Source of the DNA: Trypanosoma brucei
Lineage: Eukaryota
Length of the DNA stretch: 64,000 bases
Assembly (NCBI GenBank): GCA_000002445.1
Contig: CH464491.1
Location: forward strand, 640,001 to 704,000
Direction of reading: 5' to 3'
A program made the translations under genes and the position numbers. Below the pieces are notes generated by a model. That model saw nothing but the letters and a program-made list of their open reading frames with translations, was not told the origin of the DNA and did not search any database. The first letter of the stretch is position 1; every line of letters begins with the position of its first letter. Shown here one piece after another: positions 11,847 through 43,619 of the stretch.

Positions 11847-11905
11847 GGAAGCCTCAACGCTGCCGGCTGGAACTACACGCTGTTTCTCAACCGTATAAGC
11901 CAAAA

Positions 11906-11910
<5 letters not shown>

Positions 11911-11939
<29 letters not shown>
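11911..11939. repeat. (TA)14 microsatellite
   Basis: Direct reading. Confidence 0.95.
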
Positions 11940-11941
<2 letters not shown>

Positions 11942-12835: not shown

Positions 12836-12856
12836 GGAGGAGGAGGAGGAGGAGGG
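12836..12856. repeat. (GGA)7 microsatellite
   Basis: Direct reading. Confidence 0.9.
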
Positions 12857-13466: not shown

Positions 13467-13493
13467 ATATATATATATATATATATATATATA
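13467..13493. repeat. (AT)13 microsatellite
   Basis: Direct reading. Confidence 0.95.
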
Positions 13494-13798
13494 CGCAAGT
13501 ACTCGCATCCATACGCACAGATGCGTGCATGTATTCATGAATAAATGATTATGTGCATGTGCATATTTGGGCGTTTGTTTCCCTTTTTTTTCTCTCTTTC
13601 CACCCTCCTTCCAATCAACACCTCCTGTTTCTTACGGGAGGAGGGAACGGGTCGGAAGCGCTGTGGTTTAGCCGTTTATAATTCCTTCCTTTTTTCTTTC
13701 CCTCTTCTTTGCGCGTCAGCCAGTTGGGAAGAAATATAATGGAAGTGAAGAGTGAAACGGTAATGGAATGCGTATTTCTGCTTGCGTTTATTTATATT

Positions 13799-13800
<2 letters not shown>

Positions 13801-13829
<29 letters not shown>
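13801..13829. repeat. (TA)14 microsatellite followed by a G11 run at 13866-13876
   Basis: Direct reading. Confidence 0.95.
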
Positions 13830-13833
<4 letters not shown>

Positions 13834-16010: not shown

Positions 16011-16608
16011 AGGGCACGAGGAGGGGGGGGGGGAAACGTGCAGTGGTAGTAGTCGTGTCATTTTTGGTAGTATCGATTAGGTTTCCGAGATGTATACATA
16101 TTTTCAGGTATGCACTCATATGTTGAAATGCCGCGTAAACCACATGTGCATTCCTTGCTGGAGCTTCAATATCTAGCGAAGGAGCTGTGTGGTATGGAGA
16201 CACATTTTGATTCCTTCACCACACACGTAGCGTGCTGCACAAAGTCGCCGGTGGTGTATGAGCTACGATTCCTTTCTCAGGGAAGTCGGACCATGAGACA
16301 CGAGTGGAGTTACTTATGATTTTGCTTGTATTTCCATTAGCCTCTAGTTTCCCACCTCTGTTTGGAATGTCAAAAACCAACTTCTGGTATGCTTTCCCCC
16401 CTCTCTTCCACACCTTCTCACGTGATCATTATCTTTCTTTATTTGCTCTCCCCCTTTTCTGTGCTCGCCAGAGGTTAAACTCTCTTTTAAGAAAGTGATC
16501 GGTTTTGTTTGTTGTTGTTTTCGAAGAAGGAAACAAAAAAAAAAAAAGAACGATCGGCGGTGGTATTGACGGTTGCACAGACAAAAAGGAAATAAAATAA
16601 ATAGCACC

Positions 16609-23969: not shown

Positions 23970-26711
23970 ATGTCTCTTAGCGCCTTACGGTCCAAACGCA
24001 CCGTAAATGATATTTGGCCTGTCCGTTACAAACGTTTTTTTGTATTGACGGACCCTCAGAATATCATAGGAGAAACCACCGACGGACTGGCAACACTCAC
24101 AACCATTTCTTATCTACTGGAAAGGGAAGCTGCTGTTGTGGTTGCCTCATCCTTTGGCGACTTGAAGGGCATTCCTCTCAGTTTTTCAAGGGGACAGCGT
24201 GAGGAGGCGATTGAAATATTTCGAACTGAGGGTGGCATGGGATACACCAACTACTTCAACTCGCTTCCCATAAACCTCAAGGCAGAGGTTCTCAAGGTCG
24301 CAAACGGATGCGAAACACCCGTGGATTCCGTAACCCTATCTCCTGTGGAAGTAAATGGTGCATTTGCAGCGCTTTCCATACGTCAAAAGGCTGCTGCTCT
24401 TCACAATGTGTTTCCACGAGTGGAATTTTCTCAGTGCTCGACTTATGCCTTCGTGCGTGAACTCACCAATCGTTTCCCCACTGTCCCTGTGAAATTCTCT
24501 CCCGATCCGCTGAATGCCCCGATCAGTCAGCTGAAGCCGGGGGAAATACTGGTGCTTGAAAATTTAAAGTTTTACCAAAATGAAATTTCACCGAACCATG
24601 AAGAGCGTGTGGCGATGGCTGAGGTTTTGGCGTCCTACTGTGATTACTGTGTTAATGAATCCTTCGCAACAGTGTGTGCCGTCCACGCCAGTAACACCGA
24701 GTTACCCAAGATCCTCTACCATGGTGCTGCTGGTTTTTCCATGGAAAAGGAACTCGCCTTCTTCCTCAGCTTCCTCGCCCACCCTCCTCGTCCCATTGTT
24801 GTTGTTGTGGCCGGAAGGCAGTCCTCAAAAAAACTCCGTATGATTCGCAGTTTGGTTGGAAAAGTTGATAAGATTCTTGTGGCGGGTGCGTTGATCATGC
24901 CTTTCCTAGCAGCTAAGGGCCTTACAACTGACAAGTCTTTCAACAACTCCGAACGGGTGGAACGAAGGCGGCTGAATGAAGCCGCCGAAGTGGAGGAGCT
25001 GTCGGTACCTTGTGTTGGGTTTGCTCAAGAAATTATCACATTGTGTGAGAAAAACGGCGTTGAGTTGGTTTTCCCCGTGGACCACGTCGTGACAAGGAGG
25101 ATCACAAAAGCTACGGAGGACTCTGCGGCTATTGTTGAGTCAATTGCGGTCCCTTCGGATGTCTATGCTGTGGATTGCAGCGCGAACACGATCGCACTTT
25201 TTACGAAGTGTATTCGCCCTTGTCAGTGTGTCTTCTGGACTGGAACCTTTGGCTGCACGAGAATGGGCTATTCCGAGGGAACATATGCCTTCGCTAGGGC
25301 TCTGGCGCAACAAGGGAAGCTTTCTATTGTCAGTGGCAACAGTACGGCTTGTGTGGTACGGCAACTAGGGCTAACTTCCCAGTTCTCGCACATCTCAAGT
25401 GGCGGCAGCACGTGCCTGGATGCGTTACAGGGGCACCACCTTCCTGGTGTAGAGATGCTTTCTGATATTCCTGTGGCAGTGGACGTCAGGAGTTGCATAC
25501 TAGCAGACGATCTTCTCCGAAGCTTACCCCTCTTCTCGAACTGCTCTTCACACCAACTTAAGGCGGTAGCGCAGAAGTTTGTGCGGCGAGTCCATGCCTG
25601 TGGTGATTACCTGACGTATTATGGGGACAAGCACGCATGCATGTGGGTTGTTGCGAGCGGTGGGCTGGTGGCCCGGAGTGGTGACACCACACTAACTCTC
25701 CCTTCGCGTTATATCGGACGGGGACAGACGGTTGGTATGTACGGTTTCATCACTCAAAGCTTTGCAACAGATACAATTCAAGCGGCCGAAGACGAAACGG
25801 TCACATACCAGCTGACATTCTCCTCCCTCCAAGATCTCTTCAACGAGCAATCGGACCTTGCAGCGCAGCTCCTCCAAAACGTGTCAGAAACATTGCGGGT
25901 CATGGCAATTGAGGAGTATCGTGAACAGAGCTCTATTATGAACGTGCTGAGGCGTGCGGCTTTGTGCTCTCGGTTTCCCACATTCCTTGCTATACCAAAG
26001 GATTGGGGTTTCATGGAAGACGTCATTCAGGATATCATTTCGGGCACCGTGCTGAGTGGAATAACTCAAATATGCACGGGGCAAACGGCACTTTCCTCGC
26101 CTCGGACGTTTTCATTGGGTCTGGGTTCATCTACTTCCAGAGGTCACATGGTCCACTGCCTTTGCCGAGTAGTATTACGCGATTTGCTGTACCACAAGCT
26201 TATCGAGTACGGCATAATGCCTGCCACCTGCATTTCCTCCATTATTCTTTCCCCGTTTCGACTGAGGGCAATGGGTATGATGTGGAGCGATGTTACGTGC
26301 AAAGCCATGTTGGATGAAGCGCTGCTGTTGGCTGTTGAAATGTGCTCCCCTATTGCTGCGCACGGTACATTTCTTGTGGTGCAGCGCCGAATCGAAGTAT
26401 TACTGAGGCGGAAATGCGCCACCATCGTCAAGTTCTTCCTCACTGCACTGGTTGACGTCGGGTTTGGGTTCGTGTTGTTTCCGCTGACGTTTCACCGCCG
26501 TACAAGCGAAGCCATATCGCTTCCTGACCTTTTCCGTTCCAGTGTTTTTAAGCGTCACCAATGGAAAGTAGTGCTGCTTCTGGTATTACGGTGTGTGGTG
26601 CATGTGCTTTTGAATGGCGTCCGCAGAGTTCATAGGTTTTGGGTGATTAAGAGAAAATCCGAAAGTGGCTGCAACCTGACACCACAGCGGTTGCCCCGAG
26701 TAACAAAATAG
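23970..26711 (+). CDS. Phosphoglycerate-kinase-like domain fused to a cyclic-nucleotide-binding-like domain and C-terminal transmembrane helices (PGK-like protein, probably non-catalytic)
   Basis: The N-terminal ~470 aa are collinear with the PGK fold (KRFFVLTDPQN...; ILVLENLKFYQNE; FWTGTFGCTRMGYSEGT; IVSGNSTACV...ISSGGSTCLDALQGHHLPGV). The canonical RVDFNVP and HLGRP substrate-binding motifs are replaced. A cNMP-binding-like segment lies around aa 500-640 and several hydrophobic helices around aa 700-880. Confidence 0.7.
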   Translation: MSLSALRSKRTVNDIWPVRYKRFFVLTDPQNIIGETTDGLATLTTISYLLEREAAVVVASSFGDLKGIPLSFSRGQREEAIEIFRTEGGMGYTNYFNSLPINLKAEVLKVANGCETPVDSVTLSPVEVNGAFAALSIRQKAAALHNVFPRVEFSQCSTYAFVRELTNRFPTVPVKFSPDPLNAPISQLKPGEILVLENLKFYQNEISPNHEERVAMAEVLASYCDYCVNESFATVCAVHASNTELPKILYHGAAGFSMEKELAFFLSFLAHPPRPIVVVVAGRQSSKKLRMIRSLVGKVDKILVAGALIMPFLAAKGLTTDKSFNNSERVERRRLNEAAEVEELSVPCVGFAQEIITLCEKNGVELVFPVDHVVTRRITKATEDSAAIVESIAVPSDVYAVDCSANTIALFTKCIRPCQCVFWTGTFGCTRMGYSEGTYAFARALAQQGKLSIVSGNSTACVVRQLGLTSQFSHISSGGSTCLDALQGHHLPGVEMLSDIPVAVDVRSCILADDLLRSLPLFSNCSSHQLKAVAQKFVRRVHACGDYLTYYGDKHACMWVVASGGLVARSGDTTLTLPSRYIGRGQTVGMYGFITQSFATDTIQAAEDETVTYQLTFSSLQDLFNEQSDLAAQLLQNVSETLRVMAIEEYREQSSIMNVLRRAALCSRFPTFLAIPKDWGFMEDVIQDIISGTVLSGITQICTGQTALSSPRTFSLGLGSSTSRGHMVHCLCRVVLRDLLYHKLIEYGIMPATCISSIILSPFRLRAMGMMWSDVTCKAMLDEALLLAVEMCSPIAAHGTFLVVQRRIEVLLRRKCATIVKFFLTALVDVGFGFVLFPLTFHRRTSEAISLPDLFRSSVFKRHQWKVVLLLVLRCVVHVLLNGVRRVHRFWVIKRKSESGCNLTPQRLPRVTK

Positions 26712-27069: not shown

Positions 27070-27630
27070 GTGGAACTCAAGCGGAAATTTGACCTTCGTT
27101 TCATCGTGGCAGTAAATTCCTTTACGTCGGAGCATTCCTCCTCCATGGAGGCGTACGTCTATAACACTTTCTGGACTCGATTTGCGCTAAAGGAATATTC
27201 ACTCGACGATTTTGACTGCTACGAAAAGCACTGGACGGTTATGAATTACACCAACCCCGAGGCATTGCTTCAGTTGCATGACCATGACTTTGTGAAAGAG
27301 TTTAACGAGGAATATGCCTCGAGTGGTTACGGTGAAGCAGCATGGGAAAAAATTGCATATCCGAAGATTCTGAAAATGCTTCGTGAAGCATTTGGCATGG
27401 TGGTAACGAGGGGTGGGGATCACAGTCGATGCCGTGCGATGTATGGTGTGGATGTTATGCTACGGACGGAGCGCTGTGTTGAAACGGGCGCTTTGACACT
27501 TGAGCCTTCGTTACTCGAAATCACCTTCAGTCCGGACTGCCGTCGCGCCTGCAAATATCATCCAACGTTCTTCAATGACATTTTCCACACACTTTTCCTT
27601 AGGGATCCAACGAACATGACACCACTGTGA
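27070..27630 (+). pseudogene. Inverted partial duplicate of the 3' end (last ~184 codons) of the TTL gene at 41679-43619; gene fragment
   Basis: 100% amino-acid identity to the C-terminus of the 646-aa TTL (RKFDLRFIVAVNSFTSEHSS...TNMTPL). Nucleotide identity begins abruptly at 27079. An ATG (MELK) exists only in the unique junction sequence. Upstream sequence is unrelated to TTL. Confidence 0.65.
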
Positions 27631-27853
27631 GCTATTTCATTGGAAACATTTTTCTTCCATCATCATTTATGTTGCATGTGGATTTCCATCAGAACTTTGT
27701 CACAGAGTGGTGTTGCTTAACATCAATTTTGTGTGAACCCAGATATATATGCGTATGTATGTGAATGTGTGTGTTCCCTTATGCCTATGCTTCTACCCTT
27801 TTTCTTTTTCCTTTCAGTAATATCTCAGCTTTCAGGATTACAATCAATAAACA
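27079..27853. repeat. Outer inverted-repeat arm (left), ~99% identical to reverse complement of 41444-42230
   Basis: Direct comparison: coding part identical; the intergenic part shows one substitution and one small T-run indel. Confidence 0.85.
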
Positions 27854-28015
27854 AGCGGACAGAGAGGTGGCTCGGGAGGAAAGCCTTTGCGGACAGTGCG
27901 AATTTCTGATTTTCACGTAATCATTCTTCGGGGAGGGGGAGAGACTGTTATTTACTGTCTATATAAGCGTTGATCCCAAAGTAATAACAGTAAGAAACAT
28001 ATAAGATATATCATT

Positions 28016-28672
28016 ATGGGTTGTGGCGGTTCCAAACCTAACGCGGTAAGCAGAGATGTGGAGGAGAAGGCTCTGTATCTTCGTGGTATCAAAGAATCAA
28101 TCGATAAGGCAGAGGGAAACATGCTTGCCACTCTCCATGCCCTGCAGGCGTTGATGAGATCATATGAATCCACTTCATACTCATTTGTTGAGCTTGCACA
28201 CGGTACGGACGGCAATACATCATTGAAGGCGAAGACATTTGAGTCTGATATGCGGACACTAAAAGACAGTGGCATCATGCCGAAACTGCAAAAGGACCTC
28301 GGCCAGTCCGTCAGTTCCTTGGGAAAAGACATCAGGGCAAAACATGACAAAGCGAATGTGGTGTACAGAGAAATGACACAAGCCAATGACGCGTACTGCA
28401 AGTTGCGCGAGCGAGTTAACGGCATAGAGAAGAGTTACGCCAAAAAAAACAAGCCCGTAAGTGAGTGCCCTTCGTACACAAAGAATTGTAAGGAACGTGA
28501 CGTCTGCTTAGCCAGGTATGAAGGACTTAAAAAAGTTTTCCTGACGTTGGTGGAAGAGCTGAGGACTCTCATCCGTTCCTATGTGACTGCAGGGCTTACG
28601 CGATACGCCTTCTCTACTGCGGATTATGCGCAACAGTTGGTGAATAGTCTCCAGAAGTACAAATCCGAGTAA
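28016..28672 (+). CDS. Small dually acylated (MGCGGS N-myristoylation/palmitoylation motif) helical protein; possibly flabarin (flagellar BAR-like protein) family
   Basis: 218 aa with an N-terminal MGCGGSK (Gly2, Cys3) motif. Predicted all-helical/coiled-coil. Paralogous (about 45% identity) to the minus-strand ORF 40733-41401. Last gene of the plus-strand array. The flabarin assignment comes from recollection of a flabarin/flabarin-like pair next to TTL in T. brucei. Confidence 0.5.
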   Translation: MGCGGSKPNAVSRDVEEKALYLRGIKESIDKAEGNMLATLHALQALMRSYESTSYSFVELAHGTDGNTSLKAKTFESDMRTLKDSGIMPKLQKDLGQSVSSLGKDIRAKHDKANVVYREMTQANDAYCKLRERVNGIEKSYAKKNKPVSECPSYTKNCKERDVCLARYEGLKKVFLTLVEELRTLIRSYVTAGLTRYAFSTADYAQQLVNSLQKYKSE

Positions 28673-30011
28673 TTAGCGCAATGAGCAGAAACATGGACTT
28701 AAGATGCAGTTTTCAGACAGGCAATAAAAAGGGGGAAAGGGAAAAAGGTATACATTAAAAAAAAAAAGAGGAAAGGGGACGTGGGGACGGAAGAAACTGA
28801 TTTTATGTTCGGTTGGGATGGGCGGGTTCCATTCCAGTCCCCCCTAGTAGCGGTGAATTTTTTTTTTTTTTGGAGGAGGGGGGGGACGGGAAAATAAGTC
28901 GTTTAGGTGACAGGTGTGTGGACGAGCCGCCGTGCTTATCATTCACATTTTAAACACGGGTTCTGCCGCATTTAAGTTTCGTTTTGCTTCCGCTTTGGTG
29001 TTCTGAAGGTGATGTTTTTTTTTTCTTATATTTTGACTTATGCAATCGGGATCATTTCCTTTTTTGTTCTCGGTGTATGTGATTTTGTGTTTGGCTTCCT
29101 TTTTTTTTTTTTTTTTCTTTTTTTTTTTGGTGTTTCTTTTTCGAATATCTCTACCCCACTTTTTTTCTGTTTGACACATCGTTTAAGTTGGGCTGTGCGT
29201 TGATGATGAAAAATAGATGCTTACCGCTGCTCTTTCCGGTTTTTTTTTCAGCTCCAACGTTGCCGTTACTTGTTGTAGCATTTGTTCTATTATATTACTA
29301 GAGCTATGAATAGATAAGACATGGGAGTAATCTGCCTAATCTTTACTGTTTTGTTTTGTTTTGGTCCCTGAGTATTAGGCGTGCGTGTGTGCGTGCCCAC
29401 ATATGTATTTAAAAAAAAAAAATAGTAATGAAAGACCTACACCTGTTTGTTCCCTTTCCTCATTGTTTCCTCTTTTTTTTTTCTGAGGCACCTTACAAGG
29501 TTTATGCGAGGGGCAGGTTGTTCATTTCACACGAAAAATCGCTATTATATTAGTAAATAATGTTTGCTGTTTCCACCTCCTGGAAAAAAAAAAGGGAGGA
29601 AAAGATATATGTAACAAAATAAAGTAAGAAAATTAAAAAAAAAACAACCTTCCGAAAATACATACAGAACACGGAACATATCCGTCAGAGAGGAGCTCCA
29701 TTATTGGAACATTCTTTTTCTTGCTTTTTCGTTTATTGCAGTGCTGTTGTTCGACCGTTGCGAATAAAAGTGACTAAAAATATATTCTGTCTTCTTCCAA
29801 CATTTTTCTCGTCTTTCTTTTTTCATTCACATGGGGCACAACATGCTTTACCAACAGATGATATTTCGACGAATCAAAAGACAACAGCGCGTAAGGCACA
29901 TACAACGTTAAGGGCAAGAAAAAAAAAAGGGAGGGGGGGGGCGGAAAGTAAATAAATTGCGGCAGCATTAACCATTTAGCGGTTAAAAAGAAGGAAGTGA
30001 ATAATCAAAAA

Positions 30012-30036
30012 AATAATAATAATAATAATAATAATA
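30012..30036. repeat. (AAT)8 microsatellite; a similar (AAT)7 lies at 40105-40125 in the same orientation
   Basis: Direct reading. Confidence 0.9.
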
Positions 30037-30415
30037 AGTAAGGGGAATAAATATGGCATTGATATTAACAACAACAATAATATAATTATTAGTATTATTT
30101 GTGAGCCGCTGCGAAGCAGGTTTCTAAATATAAACTCGCCGTTTCCACGCCGAATTTTCACATGGTGCGCGGACTCATCCGAGGTGTACCCGTGAGGTGC
30201 GGTATTTGCCGTTTAAAACATCCCTCATGTTTCTTTCCCAACTCGTTAAAAAAAATATATATATATAGCCAATGGATTTGCGTAAACTTCTGCAGACATA
30301 TCGCTCACCGCCAAATAATACCGCGGTGCAATTTCTCATACACGTGACTTGTGCTGTCGGGGAAAAGACATTTTTTTATTTTTTTTTGCACACTTCGAAA
30401 AGAAAAAAAAATTTG

Positions 30416-32137
30416 CGTTACCCGCTACCGCCATTCACGGCGAGGAAGCTGAGTTTGCCAGAAGATCCGTTTTCTTATCCTTTTTATTTTCTTCCCCTTT
30501 TATGTAACTGTTGAAAAACTCATTGTGCCACCTTTGTTATTCTGCAGAACACCAATGCTTCATAAGTCGACTGGGACCTTTTAATTGCTTTTCGAAATAT
30601 GGTGACGTTTTGGTTTCGTTTGCAGCATTGGGGGAGTAGAATAATGGTCATTAACTGAGGGAAAGATGTTGACGCGCTTCTTATGTTCCCTTTGGGCGTA
30701 TACTGCATGGTGATGGGTTTCTTCTTGTTCCAACAACTTGGAGAGCTTTAGAACTCGTCGCACTAGCTTCAAAATTAATAAGTGCGTTTGTTTCCCTTAT
30801 CTGCGACTTTGTCCGCTAATTCATTTTCCTTCATGCCGCAACTAAAAAAAAAAACAAAAAAACAGTAAATTTTGATATCACCGCGTTGCTACTAATGAAC
30901 GTCGGAACTGACCACTATATAACACACACAAAAATATTCCATCTTCCACCCGATGTGGAAGATGCCTTAAGAGAAATAGTGCCTGCCAATGCCTGCGATG
31001 TTATCCACGACGAAGGTTTGTCCTTCATTATTTATTTATTTATTTTAGTAGCCTATTCAACCATACCCCCACCACCACCAATTCCGCACGATAGCTGCTG
31101 CCCAACCTCCCAGCGCCCCTATGCTGTTTTATCCTTTTTTCCCCACCCGATTAAGGCGATGGCGGTCACACCCGGCGAAATCCTTTTCTCAATCCACCTT
31201 CCCCTTTGCAATGTGTGGGTCCTCTTCCCGCCGTCCAGTTCGTTAGCCTTCAAGTCTTCCAGTGCAAATGTTTTGATATAAATTATTGGGATGGGAGGCT
31301 CACCATGTTTTCCTCACGGAAAGGGAAGCCAGTTATCCGTTTCGAACCGCCATCTTTCCGCTGAACTGAGCCGCTTGTGAAGTGTTTTTTTTTTTTGTTG
31401 CAGGGATATGGCCGCATCCACGTATCGGGAAACTGGCCCTCTTTGGCCCTGAGTGTTCCGCAATATTCGATCATCCCTTTGCGCACCACCTTCCCCGCAA
31501 ATTCCCCAGCCGCGGTTCTTCAGCTGTGCTTGCTTATTTGGGCCGAGTGGAAAACCACCCGGCACCTGCACCATAACATATTCTCATTCGAACGGGGCCC
31601 AAACAGAAGGTTCGCGGGGTTTTGCACCCTTGGTTCCTACTGAGCCGGCGCTGTCACCCTTCGTCTTCAGTAAACTTGCCTTTTCACACTAAGCCGTTTG
31701 TTTCGTGTGTTGCGATGTCACTTTTATTGATTGGGAAGCGGGTGCCAGAAGGTTTGGGGGTTTTGCTTCTCTTACCCGCCCCTTCCCGCCACCACGGGAT
31801 ACGGTGAGTTCCGAGCGCACACGCCAAGTGCCGTATAATGTTGCATTCCCCAGTTGCCGGTTCTGTGGCCCGCCCCTCTGACCGCTGGAAAACGTGGTTG
31901 AGTTGTCGCTGCAGTTAATTTTCAGAGACTTCTACATTCCCGCAAGTGCATTCGATTACTTTTTTTCTTTTGTTAATCGGTGTGCTATTCGGCAATGTTG
32001 GTCAGTGAGAGCCCTTTGGCAAAGAAGATAGGGGCAATCCCAGGGCAGGTATGCGCCGTATGGAATTACACTAATCGTCGCAAGTTTCAACGATAACATT
32101 ATCAAGAATTATGAACTGAGAACCAACTTTGTATATT
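30416..32137. repeat. Inner inverted-repeat arm (left), 1.72 kb, ~99% identical to reverse complement of 37741-39462
   Basis: Mirror-image ORF pairs in the six-frame track (30886-31281+ vs 38597-38992-; 31622-31807+ vs 38071-38256-; 30581-30772- vs 39106-39297+). Nucleotide comparison shows only scattered substitutions and homopolymer-length differences. Confidence 0.9.
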
Positions 32138-32167
32138 TTGGAGGTGCGCAGGCAACGTTGAGTGAAT

Positions 32168-32179
32168 TATTCAGGGGAA
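32168..32179. repeat. Target-site duplication (TATTCAGGGGAA), 3' side of ingi
   Basis: Identical 12-mer at 37434-37445 immediately flanking the other end of the element. Confidence 0.8.
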
Positions 32180-32452
32180 TTTTTTTTTTTTGGAATTTTC
32201 TTCGTGCCTTCGTGGGAGTTTCCCCCCACTGGCGCGGCCATCAGCCATCACCGTAGAGCCCTGAGATGCTATCGGTCTGGCGACTGTGGCAGAGTCTCCC
32301 TTTTTTATTCATCCTAACACTCCCTCTATAATTTTTGTTGTAGCTCCGCAGTTGAACGGAATACAGCAGATGGGGCAAGAGGCCCCCCACTCCGGACTCT
32401 CCAAAAGATGTCAATTAGCAATCCTTTTGTTTTGATTTTTGTTATTCGTTTA

Positions 32453-34162
32453 TTATTCTCTCCCCCTCTTTCTGTTTCTGTTGCTTGTTGACTGCATACC
32501 TCCTCTGTCTCTGAGGGTGTCTGGACTATTCCTGCGTCCGGTGCTTTTCCTGCTGGCTCCACACTCGGCAATAAGGGGGGAAGTTGCAGAAGGGAGAGTG
32601 GGTTGTATGACTGTTACCTTAGGTGAGGACTTCACCTGTGGCCGGCTCCGTTCAACCGCAATGAGAAACTGCGCCAGCCTTTTGGAGAAACATACATCCT
32701 GCACACACACACCTTCTACCGCAAACCTGACACGTAACTCCTTCAAACCGGGACAGCTCATCAAGTGCAGCGACGTTTCTTCGCAGTCGCCGCGTTGGCT
32801 GGTAACAGCGCGCTCTACCTTCATACCGTGCATCTTCTTTTGATGTAGGGTGAGGCCAGTTTTGCTAGCACACTGCCTTCCGCATGTCGGGCACACCAAC
32901 ATGGATGCTTTTGTATGCGGGGAATCAGTGGCACAAAATTTTGTGCTTTTGCTGCATTTAAGCTCGACTCCCTCACCTTTGTGGAAAGCCTTGCAGTGTC
33001 GGATGAGGGAGTCCCTGCAACTGAGCACTTTTTGGCACACACCACACTGCACCTCGCCTTTCCCCGGGACGTCAACGTTTCCCTCACGGGCACGCTTACG
33101 AGGGAATTGCACCAACACCACGGTACCGTCCTCCGTCACTATGCTTTTATGTTTGAATTTCTTGTGTAGTGTCAGGGAAGAACGTGTACCGAAGCTCGCC
33201 TCGCACAGGTCACATTGAAACGGCAGCTTCCGTGTATCCTGAGAGGCTGGCGCTGCTGGGGCTCTACCATCTCCTTGCAATGAGTCCTCGTTCTCTCGCC
33301 CCCTTTTCACGCGGCAACTACCGCTGCCTATGCCATGTATTGTTCTAAGGTGGTGTAGTAGTCGGCCTGGCACTGCGAATTTGGAGGCACAGATGGTACA
33401 ATGAAGCACCTGCGGTCTCATCGGGACTCGTGTGCTCGATGGTAGAGGAACGATCGCCACCACTGGAGGGGGCTCCGGGGGGATATCCACTGCAGGTGTT
33501 GCATCGCCGTATTTGATCCTCCGGAGGGCATCAGCTCGCACAAAGCCATGTTTGTTTACCATGTGCGTTACAGCACTCGAGCGGCATTGGTATGTGGCAT
33601 CACATTCCGTACATTTGGTCGGTTCGGAGGTTCTCTGAAGAGTGCGTGTCGCAACAGTTGGGGCCGTTTGTATTGTTGGCCCTATCGCTGCATGTTGCGG
33701 GTTACACCATCGGCACTGTGGAGGCACACTCGGGTTGATCTTTCGCAACATCCATCCATAGTGTCTTGAAGACCCAACCCGAAAGCGTGCCAGTGCCGTT
33801 TCTTCTTCCCTCGTCAGTTCTTCTTTATGTTTTGTTGGAAAGTGGTTGCCCGTGATACCAAACCTATGAGTGTTCTCATGGACTTCTTCCGACCTAAGCA
33901 CTCGCTTCGCATAAGCAATGATGTCGGGGATCCATGTATCTCGCAACTGTGGTAAATCTGCGGCCTTTTTGGCCATTTCATCGCAAACCTCATTCCGTTT
34001 CACGCCACAATGGCCAAACACAAATTGCAGTCGGATACGTATCTTCCTTCTCTGAACTTGAAGCAGAAGCCTCCATAGTCGTCTTAGAATTGGGTCCGTT
34101 ACGGCTAGGGGGCCTGTCTGCAGTGCTGTTAACATTGATAGAGAGTCAGAGAAGATGGACAA
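32453..34162 (-). pseudogene. ingi ORF, 3' portion (RNase H remainder and C2H2 zinc-finger domain), different frame from the 5' portion
   Basis: C2H2 fingers (CTICASKFAVPGRLLHHLRTIHG; CDLCEASFGTRSSLTLHKKFKH; CGVCQKVLSCRDSLIRHCKAFH; CPTCGRQCASKTGLTLHQKKMH). The frame differs from 34288-37425 by +1. Confidence 0.8.
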
Positions 34163-34287
34163 CCTGCTCGGTGTGCTTCTGTATGCCAGAAGCCATTTCA
34201 GCAGCCGTTGCAGTCCTATCTCTAATGCTACGCATTCCGCTCTGTAACTGCATGAGAGTTCCCCTGCTCCGGTCTTGGGTGCACAAA

Positions 34288-37200
34288 TCAGCGCTTGTTT
34301 CTATAGAGCAGGGCAGCTGCTCCGGACTTCTCACCGAGGGACACGGATCCATCAGTCCACAATTCGTAGTGCTCTCGCCGCGGTGGCTCCTTCCCCCTCC
34401 GTGCAAAATGCCGTGCAATCCACTTTTCGGAAGCCTCCCTTTTGACATCGTCAGGGTCATCAGCGCACACAGGCTTTATCTGCGTGTGAAATAGTGGTCG
34501 GCAGCTGTGGCGGAGCGTCGATGTCTCTAGTGGGTGCTCGCGTGGCTCAATGCGGAGGTGGGGGTAGAACCGCATGATGCGGGAATGTGAGGCTCTGTCT
34601 GGGTGTTTGCTGTGGTATACTTCTTCAGCACTGCGCCGCAAACATCCGCCTCGTGACTCACACATCAGCATGAATTTCATGCTGCGCACAAGAGTGGTCG
34701 TCTTGAGTGGCAGGAGGTTTGCTTCCAGCAGAGAGTCCTCTTTGCGTGTCCCATGGGGTATGCCAGCTATGATGCAACTGGCTTTGTGTTGTGCTGCTGC
34801 AAGGAGATCGCGACTTCGTTCCGAAGCGTCCCAGTACCATACCTCAATGCCATACATGGTGTGTGCCTGTACGAGTGCTAGATAAAAAGCTCTCAGCACT
34901 TGTCGTCTTGGCCCCCATGTAGAAGCTGAGATGGCTGCTATCTGCAGTAGTCTGAAGTCCATCTTGCGTCTCGTTTCGGTCGTATGTGTTGCCATCCCTT
35001 GCAGACACTGGAATGTTACTCCTAGAAGCTTCGGTGTCCTGTCAGCTCCTATTCTTTCGCCGTCCAGTTGTAATGTAAGGGGGTGGCGCTCTATACACCC
35101 GAAGAGTTTGCACTTTGTTTTCGCTACGTTGACAGACATGAAATACTCTTTTGACCACTGTAACACCACGTTGAGACCGCATTGTAGTGTGTGGTTGATG
35201 ACATCCCTCTCGGTGTGCCTCGCAAGTAGCGTTAGGTCGTCTGCAAAGAATCCGTGCTGCAGTAACGGCACTTCTACAAGCCGCTGGCTCAACGAGTTCA
35301 TGACAATAATGAACATGATTGGGCCAAGGACAGTTCCTTGTGGCACTCCTCGCTCAAATGTTCTGCTTCTGGAAAGCTTCTCCTTGAATCTCACTCTGCC
35401 AGTTCGGTTACTCAGAAATGATACGCACCACTTCACAATGTGGGGTGATACCTTCATTCTGTGCATTTCCCTCGCAATTCTGTTGTGTTCTACTGTATCA
35501 AATGCCTTCTCGTAGTCAACGAATATAGCACCCGTACGAGATTGGTGCGTGGGACGGCAGAGGGCAGCGCGGACGTGCAGGAGTTGTTCGAGCGTTGAGC
35601 ATCCGCGGCGAAAGCCTGATTGCTGCGCCGTCAGCTGGGACTCAACAGTGTCTCTAAGCCTCGTGGCAATTATGCGCTCCATGACTTTGCATAGACAGCT
35701 CGTGAGCGTCACAGGCCTGTAAGAATCGAGGTCCTCCGCCTTTTTTCCGGCCTTCAGGATGGGGATGATAACACCAATCTTCCATGCAGGCGGCACGACT
35801 CCCGTTCGTAGGCTCTCATTGAATAGCCTCAGAACAACATTCAGCGCTGTTCTGCCGAGGTGTTGTAGTGCCTCGTTGTGTAAGCAATCAGGTCCGGCTG
35901 CGGATCCACTCGGTAGCAGTTTGATCGATCTCCGTAGTTCAGCCATCGTGATGGGACTGAACTCACTCGCTATCGTCTTTATTGGTGCCGGTGGGTGTGA
36001 GTCGGGGTGTCTTCTTGCGCGGGACGAGTACAGTTTAATGAACCTCTCAGCTTGACAGTAGTCCGTGATGGCCGCGTTATCAACAAGTACAGCCGGTGTG
36101 GTTAGTGGTCGTGGCGCATATACCTTCTTGACAATGTGCCAACTGCAGCGGTCTGACACCGCAAGTCTGGAGCATAGCGTGCTCCATCTCTTCTTTGTGG
36201 TACGGTCCAGGATCTGCTTACGCGTGGCTACCAACTTTTCCCTTCGGTGGGAGGGTCCGCATCCAGCGATCTCTTCATCGAGTTTCGCGAGCTCAGGTGT
36301 CCAATGTGGTGGCGTTGCTCTGCAGCCACGGGGGACGGAGACCTTCGTCGCAATGCGGATGGCGGAGCTCAATTTCTGTTCCAGGGTGTTGACGTTCTTC
36401 TCTCTACCAATTTTCCTGCAGAGCTCGTCAACCTTGAGACGGAAATTCCTCCAGTTAGCTTTTAGCCATGCGTACATGGGCTTTCGAAGCCGCGGGCAAC
36501 TCAGTGCATCTGTGTCGTCTCCAACGATAACGTCGAAAAATATGTGATGGTGATCGCTATCGGGAGAATACAGCGATGTCCACGTGTACACTGTGCAATT
36601 CCTTGACAGTGTCACATCAGGGGTGGACTCCCCGTGGTGGCGCGCGTACCTGGTGCACTCACCAGTGTTGCAGACCAGAAACTGGTTGTCAATGCACCAC
36701 TGTGTGAGGGTTTCACCCTTGGTATTTGGTGGGCTCGCGCGATCCCATGCCAACGCGTGTGCGTTAGCGTCTGCACCGATGAGCTGGGCACCGTCAGTCG
36801 TCAGAAGCGTATCTAGGTCAGTTGCCGTGAAGGTGTGTTTTGGTGGGATGTATGCCGACGTGACAGTCAGCGCCGTTCCACGTGCAAGGTGAATTGTTGC
36901 ATGCACTTGTTCAATGCGACCAATAACGGCCATACCGGTCTCGACTGGTAGGTCCTCCCTCACTAGTATTGATACACCACCTCCTTTGCAGTTACGAGCT
37001 ATTCCGTAATGTTGGTAGCCAGCAACGCTAAAGCAAGCCGCCTCTCCAGGCGTCATCCTTGTCTCGCTCAACAGACAAAAGGCGATCCGCTCATCAACAA
37101 GGGTTTTGTGGAGTGCTAATCTCTTTCCTTGAGATAGCCCGACGCAGTTCCACTGCATCCCGCGCAACGACGGGCCGGGATTCTCTTCCACATCACCGGA

Positions 37201-37425
37201 CAGCAGCATCTTAGTGCGGATGATACTGCTGATGGCACGCTGGCACGTGCCCAGGGACCGACAAATGAAAGACGGTGTCCCAGCAAGACGCTGCTGATCC
37301 CTGTGCTGTATGATGCCGTAGCCGGAGCACAGCAGTGTTCCCCATGAAAGGAACGCTGCTGGCTCTTGGCTTCCCCCGATGATACGGGGTACTGGACCCT
37401 GGCACCACGTTGAGGTGGCCGGCAT
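34288..37425 (-). pseudogene. ingi ORF, 5' portion (2A peptide, APE-like endonuclease, reverse transcriptase, start of RNase H); frame broken near 34162-34288
   Basis: ATG at element position 9. RT motifs (VTLTSCLCKVMERII; FVDYEKAFDTV; FFADDLTLLA). RNase H DGS motif at the C-terminal end (ELWTDGSVSLGEKSGAAALLY). Confidence 0.8.
37161..37184 (-). other. 2A-like co-translational 'self-cleaving' peptide motif (DVEENPGP) near the N-terminus of the ingi ORF
   Basis: Translation SGDVEENPG|PS, the canonical D-x-E-x-NPGP 2A signature. Confidence 0.75.
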
Positions 37426-37433
37426 CGCCAGGG

Positions 37434-37445
37434 TATTCAGGGGAA
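37434..37445. repeat. Target-site duplication (TATTCAGGGGAA), 5' side of ingi
   Basis: See 32168-32179. Confidence 0.8.
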
Positions 37446-37740
37446 CTGCGCCCGCAGAAAATAATACACACAAATGGGAACTGCCCGGTCTTGGCAGAAG
37501 AACTTAAACACTTCCCGCTATCACTTTAAATACTGCGAGCCACGCTGTCACAACGAGACAACGGGGGCTCCAACCCAAACGATCCAGGGCCGGAGTTACC
37601 GCGCAATTGATTGGTGTAATAAACGGGGGAGGGCCAACCAGAGGAGGCAGCGGTAATATTTACTAAATGCAAAATGGTATTAATCCAGTGGGTCATTGAT
37701 GCGGCATTGCGGCGCTAAAGGGCTGCGCAGCGGGCCCCTT

Positions 37741-39462
37741 AATATACAAAGTTGGTTCTCAGTTCATAATTCTTGATAATGTTATCGTTGAAACTTGCGA
37801 CGATTAGTGTAATTCCATACGGCGCATACCTGCCCTGGGATTGCCCCTATCTTCTTTGCCAAAGGGCTCTCACTGACCAACATTGCCGAATAGCACACCG
37901 ATTAACAAAAGAAAAAAAGTAATCGAATGCACTTGCGGGAATGTAGAAGTCTCTGAAAATTAACTGCAGCGACAACTCAACCACGTTTTCCAGCGGTCAG
38001 AGGGGCGGGCCACAGAACCGGCAACTGGGGAATGCAACATTATACGGCACTTGGCGTGTGCGCTCGGAACTCACCGTATCCCGTGGTGGCGGGAAGGGGC
38101 GGGTAAGAGAAGCAAAACCCCCAAACCTTCTGGCACCCGCTTCCCAATCAATAAAAGTGACATCGCAACACACGAAACAAACGGCTTAGTGTGAAAAGGC
38201 AAGTTTACTGAAGACGAAGGGTGACAGCGCCGGCTCAGTAGGAACCAAGGGTGCAAAACCCCGCGAACCTTCTGTTTGGGCCCCGTTCGAATGAGAATAT
38301 GTTATGGTGCAGGTGCCGGGTGGTTTTCCACTCGGCCCAAATAAGCAAGCACAGCTGAAGAACCGCGGCTGGGGAATTTGCGGGGAAGGTGGTGCGCAAA
38401 GGGATGATCGAATATTGCGGAACACTCGGGGCCAAAGAGGGCCAGTTTCCCGATACGTGGATGCGGCCATATCCCTGCAACAACAAAAAAAAACACTTCA
38501 CAAGCGGCCCAGTTCAGCGGAAAGATGGCGGTTCGAAACGGACAACTGGCTTCCCTTTCCGTGAGGAAAACATGGTGAGCCTCCCATCCCAATAATTTAT
38601 ATCAAAACATTTGCACTGGAAGACTTGAAGGCTAACGAACTGGACGGCGGGAAGAGGACCCACACATTGCAAAGGGGAAGGTGGATTGGGAAAAGGATTT
38701 CGCTGGGTGTGACCGCCATCGCCTTAATCGGGTGGGGAAAAAAGGATAAAACAGCATAGGGGCGCTGGGAGGTTGGGCAGCAGCTATCGTGCGGAATTGG
38801 TGGTGGTGGGGGTATGGTTGAATAGGCTACTAAAATAAATAAATAAATAATGAAGGACAAACCTTCGTCGTGGATAACATCGCAGGCATTGGCAGGCACT
38901 ATTTCTCTTAAGGCATCTTCCACATCGGGTGGAAGATGGAATATTTTTGTGTGTGTTATATAGTGGTCAGTTCCGACGTTCATTAGTAGCAACGCGGTGA
39001 TATCAAAATTTACTGTTTTTTTGTTTTTTTTTTTAGTTGCGGCATGGAGGAAAATGAATTAGCGGACGAAGTCGCAGATAAGAGAAACAAACGCACTTAT
39101 TAATTTTGAAGCTAGTGCGACGAGTTCTAAAGCTCTCCAAGTTGTTGGAACAAGAAGAAACCCATCACCATGCAGTATACGCCCAAAGGGAACATAAGAA
39201 GCGCGTCAACATCTTTCCCTCAGTTAATGACCATTATCCTACTCCCCCAATGTTGCAAACGAAACCAAAACGTCACCATATTTCGAAAAGCAATTAAAAG
39301 GTCCCAGTCGCCTTATGAAGCATTGGTGTTCTGCAGAATAACAAAGGTGGCACAATGAGTTTTTCAACAGTTACATAAAAGGGGAAGAAAATAAAAAGGA
39401 TAAGAAAACGGATCTTCTGGCAAACTCAGCTTCCTCGCCGTGAATGGCGGTAGCGGGTAACG
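37741..39462. repeat. Inner inverted-repeat arm (right)
   Basis: Reverse complement of 30416-32137 at ~99% identity. Confidence 0.9.
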
Positions 39463-40732
39463 TCATGTATAACTATAAAAAAATATATGAAATGTCAATA
39501 CTTTTTGTAATCCCTATGTCTCCTCCTCGTGCTGTTGCCCGCCAAAAAGTGATACTCTTTCATTAGAGTGCGTCAATTACCTTAAAGTGTCGCTCAATCT
39601 GCAATTCCCTATATTCAGTGGGAAAGGCGAAGGAAAGTAATGTTGCTTCTATGCTTCACTTGCCGGCACCGATGTGCAGTTGCTACTAGAGACAAAAAGA
39701 AATCCCCCTACTACGCTAAATAGAGAAGAACCAAGCAGAGAACGAAACCAGAAAGGAGGGTTCATTGGATAGAACGAAGCAAATATACGGAACAAAGAAT
39801 GAAATTTTTAAAAAAGGTGAAACTTTGTTGTTGGTGTTGATCATCACTCATTCATTTACCTCACTATTCGGTTGTCCTCCAGTGTTTCGGCCGCATGGCT
39901 CCTCATGAAGAAACAACCTGACAGGAAGGTTAAGTTCAACAAAATGCCCCTGTCACAAGCGTTTGGGGGGCAATGAGGTGACGTTTTATTACAAAAGTAA
40001 AAAAGAATTCTGACGCTCATTACAGAAATACGAAACAAAATTTAATGCCACCGTTTGTACTTACTGGAAATGTGGTGCGCACTTTGTGCTGCGGCCTTTA
40101 AAAAAATAATAATAATAATAATAATCAAGTAAACAGAAAATAGTATCGATCGTGGGAGGGAAAAAGGTATCAGAGCGAATGCACGGGCGACTATATATGT
40201 ATACAAATTCATATAAGCATATATATATGTGCACCTTCTGCCTCTAATGCATTTAAGTTCATGCATGGGTTTAGAAAGGAACGACGACAGAGGAGTGAAT
40301 ATTCTCACGATACATATGCGTATGCCTCCTCCGCAAACAGTTCCCCTTTCCCCATTTCTTATCTTCGATTTCTGCGTCGAAGTTGCTTTACCCCTGCTGA
40401 AACAATTCGAGTAAAGAACAAACAGTATCACACACAAAAAAAGTAAAAGAGTAAAAGATACATTTTAAAACAAAACAGTGAAGACAAAAAAAGCTTTCTA
40501 ACGCTAACAAAACTGAAGAAAGAAACTCCTGAGGGATATTGGTCAATCCTCCCTATTTGCGGTATTTTTTTTTCTCCCTACTTATATTTATTTACGCTCC
40601 ACTTTCTTTCTTTTCTCCCCGCCTCGCCAAGGAAACCTGCAACTACAGATCAGTTTGAAATATTTTAATTTCACATTCCTCGTTCCGCACGTTGTGGGGT
40701 TCCTACCTCTTTTTCGTTGACGCGCCCATGCG

Positions 40733-41401
40733 TTACGTCGAACTCGGAACAACTTTAAACTTCGCGAGCTCAGTGGCCATTTGCTGGGCAACAATGGCGC
40801 TGCACGCCGCATATTTTGGTAGTGCCGACCCAATGAATACCGGAATGAGACTCGCAAGTTGTTTAATCTCCGCGTTGAGAGTTTTCTTGGCCTGATCATA
40901 CTTTGCGAAGGCGGCATCACGGTCCTTGGATTCTTTTATGAACGATTTACTTTCCGTGAGGGGTTTGTCCTTCTTTGCGTAACTCTTCTCAGTTTCCTCC
41001 ACGTTATACTTGTGTTTGTCGTATGCGTGCCTGAGGGCCACGGCATTGTTGTAAAGTCGCATAACCTTTTCCTGCTGTATTTTGATGGGACGACCTGCTT
41101 CCTTCACATTGGTTACGAAGTCTTGCTGCAGGGTCGAAAGCATCGGGCCAATCTTAAGTTTCCGCACTTCCCCTTCGAAACTCACTGCCAACGAAGCCGC
41201 TTGCCCATCCGTGCCGTGTGCGAACTCCACAAATGATTGCGATGTGTTCTCATACGCCTTTATCAAGGACTGGAACGCCTGAGTTGTGGCGGTGACATTC
41301 ACCTCAAATTTTTCTATCACCTTCCCCAGACCTCGGATATACGCTCCCTTGTCGTCGAGATCCTTATCAACTGTTTCGGGGATGTTGCTGCAGCAGGGCA
41401 T
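40733..41401 (-). CDS. Flabarin-like paralogue of 28016-28672 (N-terminus MPCCSN: Gly2 lost, Cys3/Cys4 retained)
   Basis: 222 aa, collinear with the plus-strand paralogue (FVEFAHGTDGQ / FVELAHGTDGN; EKSYAKKDKP / EKSYAKKNKP). Last gene of the minus-strand array. Confidence 0.5.
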   Translation of the reverse strand: MPCCSNIPETVDKDLDDKGAYIRGLGKVIEKFEVNVTATTQAFQSLIKAYENTSQSFVEFAHGTDGQAASLAVSFEGEVRKLKIGPMLSTLQQDFVTNVKEAGRPIKIQQEKVMRLYNNAVALRHAYDKHKYNVEETEKSYAKKDKPLTESKSFIKESKDRDAAFAKYDQAKKTLNAEIKQLASLIPVFIGSALPKYAACSAIVAQQMATELAKFKVVPSST

Positions 41402-41443
41402 AATTGCTCCTTTTCTTCTCTGTCTTGCTTACCGTGTCTTGCT

Positions 41444-42230
41444 TCTCGACAATGTTTATTGATTGTAATCCTGAAAGCTGAGATATTACTGAAAGGAAAA
41501 GAAAAAAAAAGGGTAGAAGCATAGGCATAAGGGAACACACACATTCACATACATACGCATATATATCTGGGTTCACACAAAACTGATGTTAAGCAACACC
41601 ACTCTGTGACAAAGTTCTGATGGAAATCCACATGCAACATAAATGATGATGGAAGAAAAATGTTTCCAATGAAATAGCTCACAGTGGTGTCATGTTCGTT
41701 GGATCCCTAAGGAAAAGTGTGTGGAAAATATCATTGAAGAACGTTGGATGATATTTGCAGGCGCGACGGCAGTCCGGACTGAAGGTGATTTCGAGTAACG
41801 AAGGCTCAAGTGTCAAAGCGCCCGTTTCAACACAGCGCTCCGTCCGTAGCATAACATCCACACCATACATCGCACGGCATCGACTGTGATCCCCACCCCT
41901 CGTTACCACCATGCCAAATGCTTCACGAAGCATTTTCAGAATCTTCGGATATGCAATTTTTTCCCATGCTGCTTCACCGTAACCACTCGAGGCATATTCC
42001 TCGTTAAACTCTTTCACAAAGTCATGGTCATGCAACTGAAGCAATGCCTCGGGGTTGGTGTAATTCATAACCGTCCAGTGCTTTTCGTAGCAGTCAAAAT
42101 CGTCGAGTGAATATTCCTTTAGCGCAAATCGAGTCCAGAAAGTGTTATAGACGTACGCCTCCATGGAGGAGGAATGCTCCGACGTAAAGGAATTTACTGC
42201 CACGATGAAACGAAGGTCAAATTTCCGCTT
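41444..42230. repeat. Outer inverted-repeat arm (right), covering the TTL 3' coding end plus about 280 bp downstream
   Basis: Reverse complement of 27079-27853. Confidence 0.85.
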
Positions 42231-43619
42231 GCGCAGCGTCGCTGTGTTGGCGATATACTTACAGATTACCTTAGGTCCTGTTTCCACGGCTCTCAGCAGT
42301 TCAGTGAGGTTGGACGAAAGCGTCATGTCGATGCTTCGTGCCAAATTGGTGGGTTTGCTAATCCATAAATTTGTCCCGTCGTTGCTGCGCAACTTGCCGA
42401 TATCCTCATAGGTAACCAATGGGTCTGTATCAATCTTCTTGTCTAATGCGGCCTTGCGCACGATGAAGTCACCAATTAGTTCCTTTAGCTGTGTCGTCGA
42501 ATCGTAACTTGTTTGATACCAGTCGACGTAACCATAGGTCTCCTGAATTAGTCGTAACAGCCCCTGTTTACTTGTGAACTCAGACTCCTCAGGGAACTGC
42601 GAAATATATTGTGCGTGCCCATAGTCGTTTAAACCCTCGATAGAATGGTGAACAACCCATACGATGTGCGCTTCCTGCGGCAGATCGACCACCACAAAGT
42701 GATTCGCATCAGTGAGATTTTGTGAAAGCTGTTGACTGTCCGTGAAAACACGGAGCGGGCCACTCGGACACCTCTCCACCGGCGCTAGCGCACTCTGTTC
42801 CCGTTGGGCACGTCTTCCAGGAACGCTTTCCAAACGTTTCACCAGACGTCGCCACGCTTCTACGCAAAGAAGTTGGGCGGAGCGGTAGGGATCTTCTTCT
42901 GTTTCTTCCTCGTGTCGTGTGTTGTATATAAGCGACAGTATTTCCTTCCCGCTTGTCGCTTCGAGCGTTGATGCCGCCCGCCTCGTGGCAACTTCTTCCT
43001 CTTCCATGTCCTCTACGCACCACATCGCTGAGAACACACCGCCCTTTTCCGGGAAACAAATGGGTATCGGTTCCAACTTCATATTCGCTTTCTCATTCAC
43101 TACTGTTGTTATGGCGCTGCCCACTTCGTCATGGATAAACCAGTAGCTTTCGTACTGGGAATCATCTCCGTCCGCCGATGTCGGAAGGCGATACGAACCC
43201 ACCTTGTTCCACATGTGGTCAAATATCAGTTGCGCTCCATGTCTGTTATCGGCGCCCGAAAGGTTCACGGCCAAAACACGACCCAACCGCGTGCGGAGGG
43301 CCTCATTTGCTTCCAGATGAGCGCGAAAATCTCGCAGGCGGAAGGTACAGCAGTGATCAATAAGCCAAATATCGTCATTAGCCTTTAGATTCTTACTCGC
43401 CACAAGAACATAGTTACCAGCAGTTTCCGAGGACTGGTCCTCCGCGTCGACTTCATCCTCGTCCTCACGCGCTACAACCGCCAGCGAGAAAGAGGTTCCA
43501 GCGTCAAAGACGTCATTGACCAACTTTTCAAATAACGACCGCTGCAAGTGCTGAGGCACGCTGTGAACGACGAACCAGTCCGCTAGGACTCTCGAGAATG
43601 CTTCAAAGTCTTTCATCAT
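41679..43619 (-). CDS. TTL: Tubulin-tyrosine-ligase-like protein (TTL/TTLL family ATP-grasp)
   Basis: 646 aa. The C-terminal ~350 aa have the TTL-type ATP-grasp signature layout (ICKYIANTATLRKRKFDLRFIVAV...; GGDHSRCRAMYGVDVMLRTE). The N-terminal extension is unique. Confidence 0.65.
   Translation of the reverse strand: MMKDFEAFSRVLADWFVVHSVPQHLQRSLFEKLVNDVFDAGTSFSLAVVAREDEDEVDAEDQSSETAGNYVLVASKNLKANDDIWLIDHCCTFRLRDFRAHLEANEALRTRLGRVLAVNLSGADNRHGAQLIFDHMWNKVGSYRLPTSADGDDSQYESYWFIHDEVGSAITTVVNEKANMKLEPIPICFPEKGGVFSAMWCVEDMEEEEVATRRAASTLEATSGKEILSLIYNTRHEEETEEDPYRSAQLLCVEAWRRLVKRLESVPGRRAQREQSALAPVERCPSGPLRVFTDSQQLSQNLTDANHFVVVDLPQEAHIVWVVHHSIEGLNDYGHAQYISQFPEESEFTSKQGLLRLIQETYGYVDWYQTSYDSTTQLKELIGDFIVRKAALDKKIDTDPLVTYEDIGKLRSNDGTNLWISKPTNLARSIDMTLSSNLTELLRAVETGPKVICKYIANTATLRKRKFDLRFIVAVNSFTSEHSSSMEAYVYNTFWTRFALKEYSLDDFDCYEKHWTVMNYTNPEALLQLHDHDFVKEFNEEYASSGYGEAAWEKIAYPKILKMLREAFGMVVTRGGDHSRCRAMYGVDVMLRTERCVETGALTLEPSLLEITFSPDCRRACKYHPTFFNDIFHTLFLRDPTNMTPL

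Follow-up and report, generated by a model that had tools for sequence, protein, structure and literature searches.

Two flabarin paralogues with predicted BAR folds in an inverted repeat at a strand-switch region of Trypanosoma brucei

The window analyzed here is a 64,000-nucleotide (nt) stretch of Trypanosoma brucei DNA (GCA_000002445.1, contig CH464491.1, positions 640,001 to 704,000, forward strand), which carries two small protein-coding genes, TbFlabarin-like (TbFlabarinL, hereafter FlabarinL) and TbFlabarin (hereafter Flabarin). Their coding sequences (CDS), given below as open reading frames (ORFs) A and B with lengths in amino acids (aa), are as follows:

28016..28672, + strand: ORF A, FlabarinL CDS, equivalent of Tb927.11.2400; 218 aa, start MGCGGSKPNAV
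40733..41401, − strand: ORF B, Flabarin CDS, equivalent of Tb927.11.2410; 222 aa, start MPCCSNIPETV

A sequence-only reading of the window had described two paralogues of 218 and 222 aa starting MGCGGSK and MPCCSN, and both were found in the places it named. In a gapless BLASTP alignment, 82 of 216 residues were identical (38%) with 60% positives (E 8e-54), a sequence similarity far beyond chance by which A and B are paralogues, while the identity of about 45% given in that reading was too high. The coding DNA is 51.5% identical overall and 33% at third codon positions, so that synonymous sites are saturated, which points to an old duplication. The two coding sequences are separated by 12,060 nt and lie on opposite strands. 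Moreover, all ORFs of at least 250 aa are on the + strand left of 27 kb and on the − strand right of 41.6 kb, with retroelement ORFs only in between, a layout that bears out the view that the two genes end two converging arrays. ORF A starts at the first start codon following a stop. For ORF B, the frame 5' of MPCCSN reads ...TR-stop-ARQRRKGAI; the stop is 10 codons away without an intervening ATG, and thus the MPCCSN start is secure against an upstream in-frame ATG giving MG...; the T. congolense orthologue of B begins MPCCGD.

ORFs A and B are the published FlabarinL (Tb927.11.2400) and Flabarin (Tb927.11.2410), a finding that is real and already known. Cicova et al. 2016 Sci Rep (PMC5078803) described a pair on chromosome 11 that is 38% identical and 60% similar, lies about 12 kb apart on opposite strands and includes a Flabarin of 222 aa; since lengths, identity, spacing, strands and N-termini all match, the gene pair has been rediscovered here. 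As stated, the finding therefore matters little, because the pair, its paralogy, N-terminal signals, location and stage specificity were published in 2016. The T. equiperdum protein TEOVI_000665900 matches ORF A at 100% identity. ORF B likewise has a T. equiperdum counterpart at 100% identity and, at 73%, a T. congolense counterpart named 'BAR domain-containing protein'. T. b. gambiense chromosome 11 also encodes both exact proteins, near the phosphoglycerate-kinase-like (PGK) and tubulin-tyrosine-ligase-like (TTL) genes: PGK-like, TTL fragment and A come first, followed on the opposite strand by B and TTL. Tbg972.11.2660 was reported to be identical to Tb927.11.2410 (Lefebvre et al. 2013, PMC3785460). 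FlabarinL was listed as missing from T. equiperdum, with genome incompleteness named as a possible cause (PMC5078803), and we observed that a T. equiperdum OVI contig (CZPT02001083.1, locus 195-851) encodes the FlabarinL identical to that of the window (TEOVI_000665900).

To place the pair among known proteins, a profile built from A and B together with their T. congolense relative was searched against 1.8 billion representatives and matched 55 proteins at E<1e-3. These include two T. vivax proteins, one T. rangeli protein, a protein source-named 'flabarin [Paratrypanosoma confusum]' (P0011, E 1e-23) and a Leishmania-type MPLCASVPATVD protein with the start MPLCAS (P0007, E 2e-30). Word-indexed homologue searches reached no further than the identical entries from T. 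equiperdum and a single protein from T. congolense, and the other species were reached by the exhaustive profile search. The OrthoMCL groups of the Flabarin/Flabarin-like family are OG5_148786 and OG5_185161, and a previous study stated that there is no homologue outside the Leishmania and Trypanosoma flabarins (PMC3785460). Several distant relatives in our search (P0024, P0030, P0031 and others, E 1e-11 to 1e-4) start with MKKFFLDTK and carry no N-terminal Gly or Cys, and a T. theileri 'BAR domain-containing protein' is among them; non-acylated BAR relatives of the flabarin family thus exist.

When 27 aligned family members were compared with Pfam, 7 matched PF03114 BAR (best 4e-6), 4 Vps5 and 4 Arfaptin. 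The family profile gave weak BAR matches among PDB sequences, namely MIM (0.0076), amphiphysin (0.043) and arfaptin (0.28), and its top match was a designed coiled coil. The Pfam candidates RasGAP_C, RLL and Seryl_tRNA_N proposed for A and B were rejected as sub-threshold coiled-coil noise. The AlphaFold2 (AF2) models consist of three long helices, at residues 13-61, 66-143 and 152-216, with short breaks, in A (predicted local distance difference test, pLDDT, 86.6) and at residues 13-61, 66-144 and 152-213 in B (pLDDT 80.5). In Foldseek searches against the PDB, nearly all of the top 50 matches of both models were BAR, F-BAR or arfaptin structures; arfaptin-2 was matched by both with template modelling (TM) scores of 0.66-0.77 and root-mean-square deviations of 3.8-4.4 Å (model A, TM 0.71/0.77). 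With profile matches to flabarins and both predicted folds matching BAR domains, the flabarin/BAR family assignment made from the letters alone held up, and the assignment of both proteins, FlabarinL included, to the BAR domains is supported by predicted fold and transitively by sequence. The proteins stop at residues 218 and 222, right after the last BAR helix. Such a three-helix BAR module, modelled here as a monomer, would dimerise on the membrane; liposome tubulation has been demonstrated for LdFlabarin of Leishmania donovani only (PMC3785460).

Both proteins have an acylatable cysteine within the first four residues, Cys3 in A and Cys3 plus Cys4 in B, and Cys3 is invariant in A, B and the T. 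congolense protein. The N-terminus of A (MGCGGSK) presents G2, C3, S6 and K7 and fits the FCaBP/calflagin-type dual-acylation pattern (Met-Gly2, a permissive residue 3, a small residue 6, a near Cys and basic residues) and the N-myristoyltransferase consensus. B (MPCCSN) has Pro2 instead of Gly2 and fails this pattern, and its Cys3 and Cys4 are palmitoylation candidates. FlabarinL would accordingly carry N-myristate on Gly2 plus palmitate on Cys3, and Flabarin would carry palmitate on Cys3 and Cys4 only. The same interpretation of the N-termini had been reached from the letters, and it agrees with the proposals in PMC5078803, which are FCaBP-like Gly2, Cys3 and lysines in FlabarinL and two cysteines in Flabarin. 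As reported there, Gly2, Cys3 and the lysines of FlabarinL resemble the FCaBP flagellar address, with 75% identity over the first 24 residues (PMC5078803).

Across the flabarin family the N-terminal code is highly labile, with the forms MGCGG, MG[AS]GG, MPCC, MSCC, MPLC, MGLC, MGCC and MCTK (read from P0004, P0006, P0005, P0007, P0009, P0011, P0017 and P0021). Both T. vivax copies have MG[AS]GG, that is, Gly2 without Cys, and Paratrypanosoma has MGLC. As Gly2 forms occur in this earliest-branching trypanosomatid sampled, dual acylation may be ancestral instead of a novelty of FlabarinL.

According to previous studies, bloodstream forms make FlabarinL and procyclic forms make Flabarin (PMC5078803), and immunofluorescence and tagging located the proteins to the flagellum (PMC5078803 and PMC6529878). 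FlabarinL with an N-terminal tag stays cytoplasmic (PMC5078803), and TbFlabarin was reported to depend on a pair of N-terminal cysteines for its flagellar localisation (Tetaud et al. 2016 Exp Parasitol, as cited in PMC5078803). FlabarinL is dispensable in culture, in mice and in differentiation (PMC5078803). The sequence-only reading had predicted different membrane association or localisation for the two copies, and on this alternative the differing acyl codes would send the paralogues to different membranes or compartments, and the duplication would have been retained for localisation. The N-termini do differ as described, and such codes vary widely over the family; as well, FlabarinL was recovered in both membrane/detergent-soluble and paraflagellar-rod/cytoskeleton fractions and co-precipitates PAR1, and Flabarin was reported as strongly membrane-bound (PMC5078803). 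At the level of the organelle, however, the prediction was not borne out, because each protein was still flagellar, with overlapping patchy signals, when ectopically expressed in the other life-cycle stage (PMC5078803), and FlabarinL serves as a reference flagellar-membrane landmark in T. brucei (PMC6529878). Expression stage is what has been demonstrated to differ, and we therefore consider sorting to separate membranes unlikely. The established difference between A and B, which had not been predicted from the sequence, is the life-cycle stage of expression.

The control over this stage specificity may lie chiefly 3' of the coding sequence. The Flabarin 3' region contains two UAUUUUUU (UA(U)6) motifs on the − strand, starting at 40108 and 39485. 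Previous work showed that the bloodstream-form repressor RBP10 binds Tb927.11.2410 mRNA, the annotated 3' untranslated region (UTR) of which has one UA(U)6 motif (PMC5568443), and that flabarin mRNA drops on ZC3H20 depletion (bioRxiv 10.1101/646547).

We therefore read A and B, with a probability of roughly 90%, as stage-specific isoforms of a small BAR-domain protein that would be lipid-held at the inner face of the flagellar membrane. Several points speak against this reading in one part or another. Neither A nor B has a Pfam BAR match even at E<=10, and FlabarinL was without a Pfam domain in the published study as well (PMC5078803). Foldseek gave marginal E-values of about 1e-3, and no more than 3 sequences went into the models. 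The lipidation of FlabarinL and Flabarin is deduced from motifs plus mutant or tagging phenotypes. Finally, the FlabarinL 3' region also has one UAUUUUUU motif, at its far end, so that motif count alone does not explain stage specificity, and the extents of the 3' regions were taken from the sequence.

The two genes are embedded in a palindrome, the parts of which are listed below from left to right:

27078..27853, + strand: left outer palindrome arm, with the truncated 3' end of a TTL-like gene (27078-27630), the intergenic region and the 5' signals of A
27854..30415, + strand: diverged cassette A, 2562 nt, with the rest of the 5' UTR, the FlabarinL CDS and about 1.74 kb of 3' region
30416..32137, + strand: left inner palindrome arm, non-coding, no Rfam or Pfam match
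32138..32179, strand not assigned: left part of the central spacer, including a 12-nt target-site duplication TATTCAGGGGAA at 32168-32179
32180..37433, − strand: ingi-type non-long-terminal-repeat (non-LTR) retrotransposon, 5254 nt, with its poly(A) tail visible as a T-run at 32180-32191 on the + strand
37434..37740, strand not assigned: right part of the central spacer, with the second target-site duplication copy at 37434-37445
37741..39462, − strand: right inner palindrome arm, near-identical to the left inner arm
39463..41452, − strand: diverged cassette B, 1990 nt, with about 1.27 kb of 3' region, the Flabarin CDS and 51 nt of 5' UTR
41453..42231, − strand: right outer palindrome arm, with the Flabarin 5' flank and the 3' end of an intact TTL-like gene (41679-43619)

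An outer arm, a cassette and an inner arm thus stand, in mirror order, on either side of a central spacer of about 340 nt at a convergent strand-switch region. The outer arms (27078-27853 against 42231-41453) are 99.2% identical over 779 columns and the inner arms (30416-32137 against 39462-37741) 99.3% identical over 1722 nt, as the earlier value of about 99% for the flanks had suggested. Between cassettes A and B, blastn gave no significant alignment, the sole match being 33 nt of low complexity. Scans of the strand-switch region for tRNA and Rfam families returned nothing, and a 131-aa ORF in the inner arm has no Pfam match. The ingi element is bounded on both sides by the target-site duplication, and its reading frame is split into an endonuclease plus reverse transcriptase part (34288-37473) and an RNase H plus C2H2 zinc finger part (32453-34162), with Pfam matches to RVT_1 (9e-43), Exo_endo_phos_2 (1e-12), RNase_H and zf-C2H2.

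Near-identical 5' processing signals are available to both genes, since they lie inside the 99%-identical outer arms. The left outer arm has a polypyrimidine tract at 27790-27815 and a candidate AG acceptor at 27816-27817, followed by about 36 nt, and the right outer arm has a polypyrimidine tract and an AG at 41490-41489. Outside the shared flank are 162 (A) and 51 (B) nt before the ATG, the CDS, and unrelated 3' regions of 1743 and 1270 nt. With the 5' flank 99% identical, stage control would be located in the diverged cassette, chiefly in the unrelated 3' regions, and the near-identical 5' flank makes the pair a naturally controlled system for swapping 3' UTRs.

A fragment of the TTL-like gene at 27078-27630 (+ strand), comprising the C-terminal ~185 codons and near-identical to the intact gene, is located between the PGK-like gene and FlabarinL. 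Its ORF matches Pfam TTL (1.5e-25) at profile positions 114-281 only, and in T. b. gambiense a 161-aa gene is called at this position. The fragment probably has no function and is a remnant that arm-to-arm conversion has preserved. The neighboring PGK-like protein (913 aa, 23970-26711, + strand) gave a weak cyclic-nucleotide-binding match, and its C-terminus is extended by a long hydrophobic stretch. Further away in the + array, the segment 12001-14000 has a G+C content of 0.364, compared with 0.45-0.51 in its neighbors, and a negative AT skew, and no ORF of at least 250 aa occurs between 11124 and 16573.

FlabarinL lies directly 3' of the PGK-like gene and Flabarin directly 3' of the TTL-like gene in the window, T. 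b. gambiense and T. vivax. In T. vivax, the MGAGGS copy directly after PGK and the MGSGGS copy directly after TTL are convergent and about 30 kb apart. In the neighbor-joining tree, the African-trypanosome clade had 72% bootstrap, and the grouping of T. brucei FlabarinL with the PGK-side T. vivax protein P0004 was weak (60%). The saturated third codon positions and the two T. vivax copies indicate that the A/B duplication is ancient, and the tree is in line with its published origin in African trypanosomes. As well, T. vivax (SOPI01000099.1) has an inverted repeat of at least 5.4 kb, 99.98% identical, downstream of both paralogues; it was compared as locus L005 15323-20729 against L007 11800-17205 and reaches the end of the fetched locus, so it is possibly longer.

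Within the T. brucei group, the inner arms differ between left and right at 12 positions in the window, 1 in T. b. gambiense and 2 in GCA_003543875.1, and between genomes at 6-23. Genome-specific variants are common to both arms in two genomes, and the spacer of the window (32138-32179 plus 37446-37740) is inverted relative to that of T. b. gambiense DAL972 (locus 14123-14453). Arm-shared, genome-specific variants together with a flipped spacer indicate continuing recombination between the arms, and the comparison indicates that the arms are kept near-identical by arm-to-arm gene conversion, with the cassettes as an anciently diverged island. Contigs of T. b. gambiense and T. equiperdum OVI carry cassette A at 98.6-99.8% identity. 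The ingi element is absent from T. b. gambiense and GCA_003543875.1, where its target occurs once as an empty site, and is apparently present in T. equiperdum OVI, in which the contig ends inside the element.

The flanks of about 99% identity might instead descend from one recent inverted segmental duplication or cassette replacement, with no continuing conversion and with a young, incidental palindrome. The T. vivax PGK-side copy, at the FlabarinL position, has no adjoining TTL fragment, and neither blastn nor tblastx found homology between the T. brucei arms, the inner ones included, and the T. vivax arms or downstream regions, so that the T. brucei arms could be a lineage-specific addition. 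However, arm-shared variants specific to each of two genomes require exchange after very close lineages split, the spacer differs in orientation between T. b. gambiense and the window, and T. vivax possesses an inverted repeat of its own. A single recent duplication is therefore somewhat unlikely in our judgment.

A further arrangement was found in GCA_003543875.1 (CM010682.1; locus 9175-18476), which we take to be possibly T. equiperdum IVM-t1. There, a second exact 222-aa Flabarin stands at the FlabarinL position, no FlabarinL cassette was found at the flabarin locus, and the arms extend over 4.5 kb at 99.89% identity, differing mainly by gaps. The doubled Flabarin, or the identical flanks in general, might be artefacts that arose when this repeat-rich region was assembled: palindromes are easily mis-assembled, the gap-type differences between the two arms would fit such an origin, and it is possible that long-read data were merged and scaffolded on a reference to make GCA_003543875.1. 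The T. equiperdum IVM-t1 assembly was made with Metassembler plus Companion (PMC6395869). Against this, the flank structure occurs independently in the window, T. b. gambiense and T. equiperdum OVI, and the palindrome of GCA_003543875.1 has a natural 306-nt spacer, the correct unique flanks (the PGK side and the full TTL side) and an empty ingi site, unlike the product of a simple chimeric read. The preserved spacer and flanks favor real arm-to-arm conversion over a simple assembly chimera, and an artefact appears improbable. We tentatively propose, at a little short of even odds, a long-lived palindrome in which conversion homogenises all but the cassettes, held distinct by selection or heterology, and occasionally crosses a cassette, and in which GCA_003543875.1 would be a natural FlabarinL knockout. 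If this is true, a T. brucei-group strain exists with a natural knockout of the bloodstream-stage isoform, and palindrome conversion may explain the reports of FlabarinL missing from some genomes.

Compared with the pair described by Cicova et al., A and B show no protein-level difference. The same study calls the intervening 12 kb 'non-coding', and the inverted-repeat arms, the TTL fragment and the ingi element are unmentioned there (PMC5078803). LdFlabarin, which shares its orthologous group with Tb927.11.2410, resides at the flagellar membrane and has a BAR domain in its central part; a palmitoylatable cysteine near its N-terminus (MPLCASI) is required for it to reach the membrane and the flagellum (PMC3785460). 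At about 340 aa it is longer than A and B (218 and 222 aa), and it is only about 18% identical to TbFlabarin. Its flagellar specificity comes from a disordered C-terminal domain at aa 256-339 (PMC3785460), a tail that A and B do not have; this contrast of Trypanosoma with Leishmania flabarins is already on record (PMC3785460; title of Tetaud et al. 2016).

Arfaptin and the classical BAR domains (PDB 4dcn, 1i49 and 3caz) resemble A and B in the predicted three-helix coiled coil of about 200 residues. However, sequence identity to them is 12-15%, without a Pfam-level match for A and B, and the membrane anchor of A and B would be an acyl chain in place of the amphipathic N-BAR helix of classical BAR proteins. 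The FCaBP of T. cruzi and the calflagins of T. brucei are like A in their targeting peptide of Gly2, a nearby Cys and lysines; the likeness is confined to this peptide, because they are EF-hand calcium sensors and not BAR-domain proteins.

The palindrome itself can be compared with the ampliconic palindromes of the human Y chromosome and the inverted repeats of plastids, which have near-identical arms, a short unique spacer, homogenisation and spacer inversion polymorphism. Unlike these, the T. brucei arms are small (about 0.8 plus 1.7 kb), each is split by a non-homologous gene cassette, and the whole is situated at a convergent transcription-unit boundary. With its concerted evolution, spacer flip, ingi insertion polymorphism and possible cassette conversion, the palindrome is a compact example of inverted-duplication evolution at strand-switch regions.

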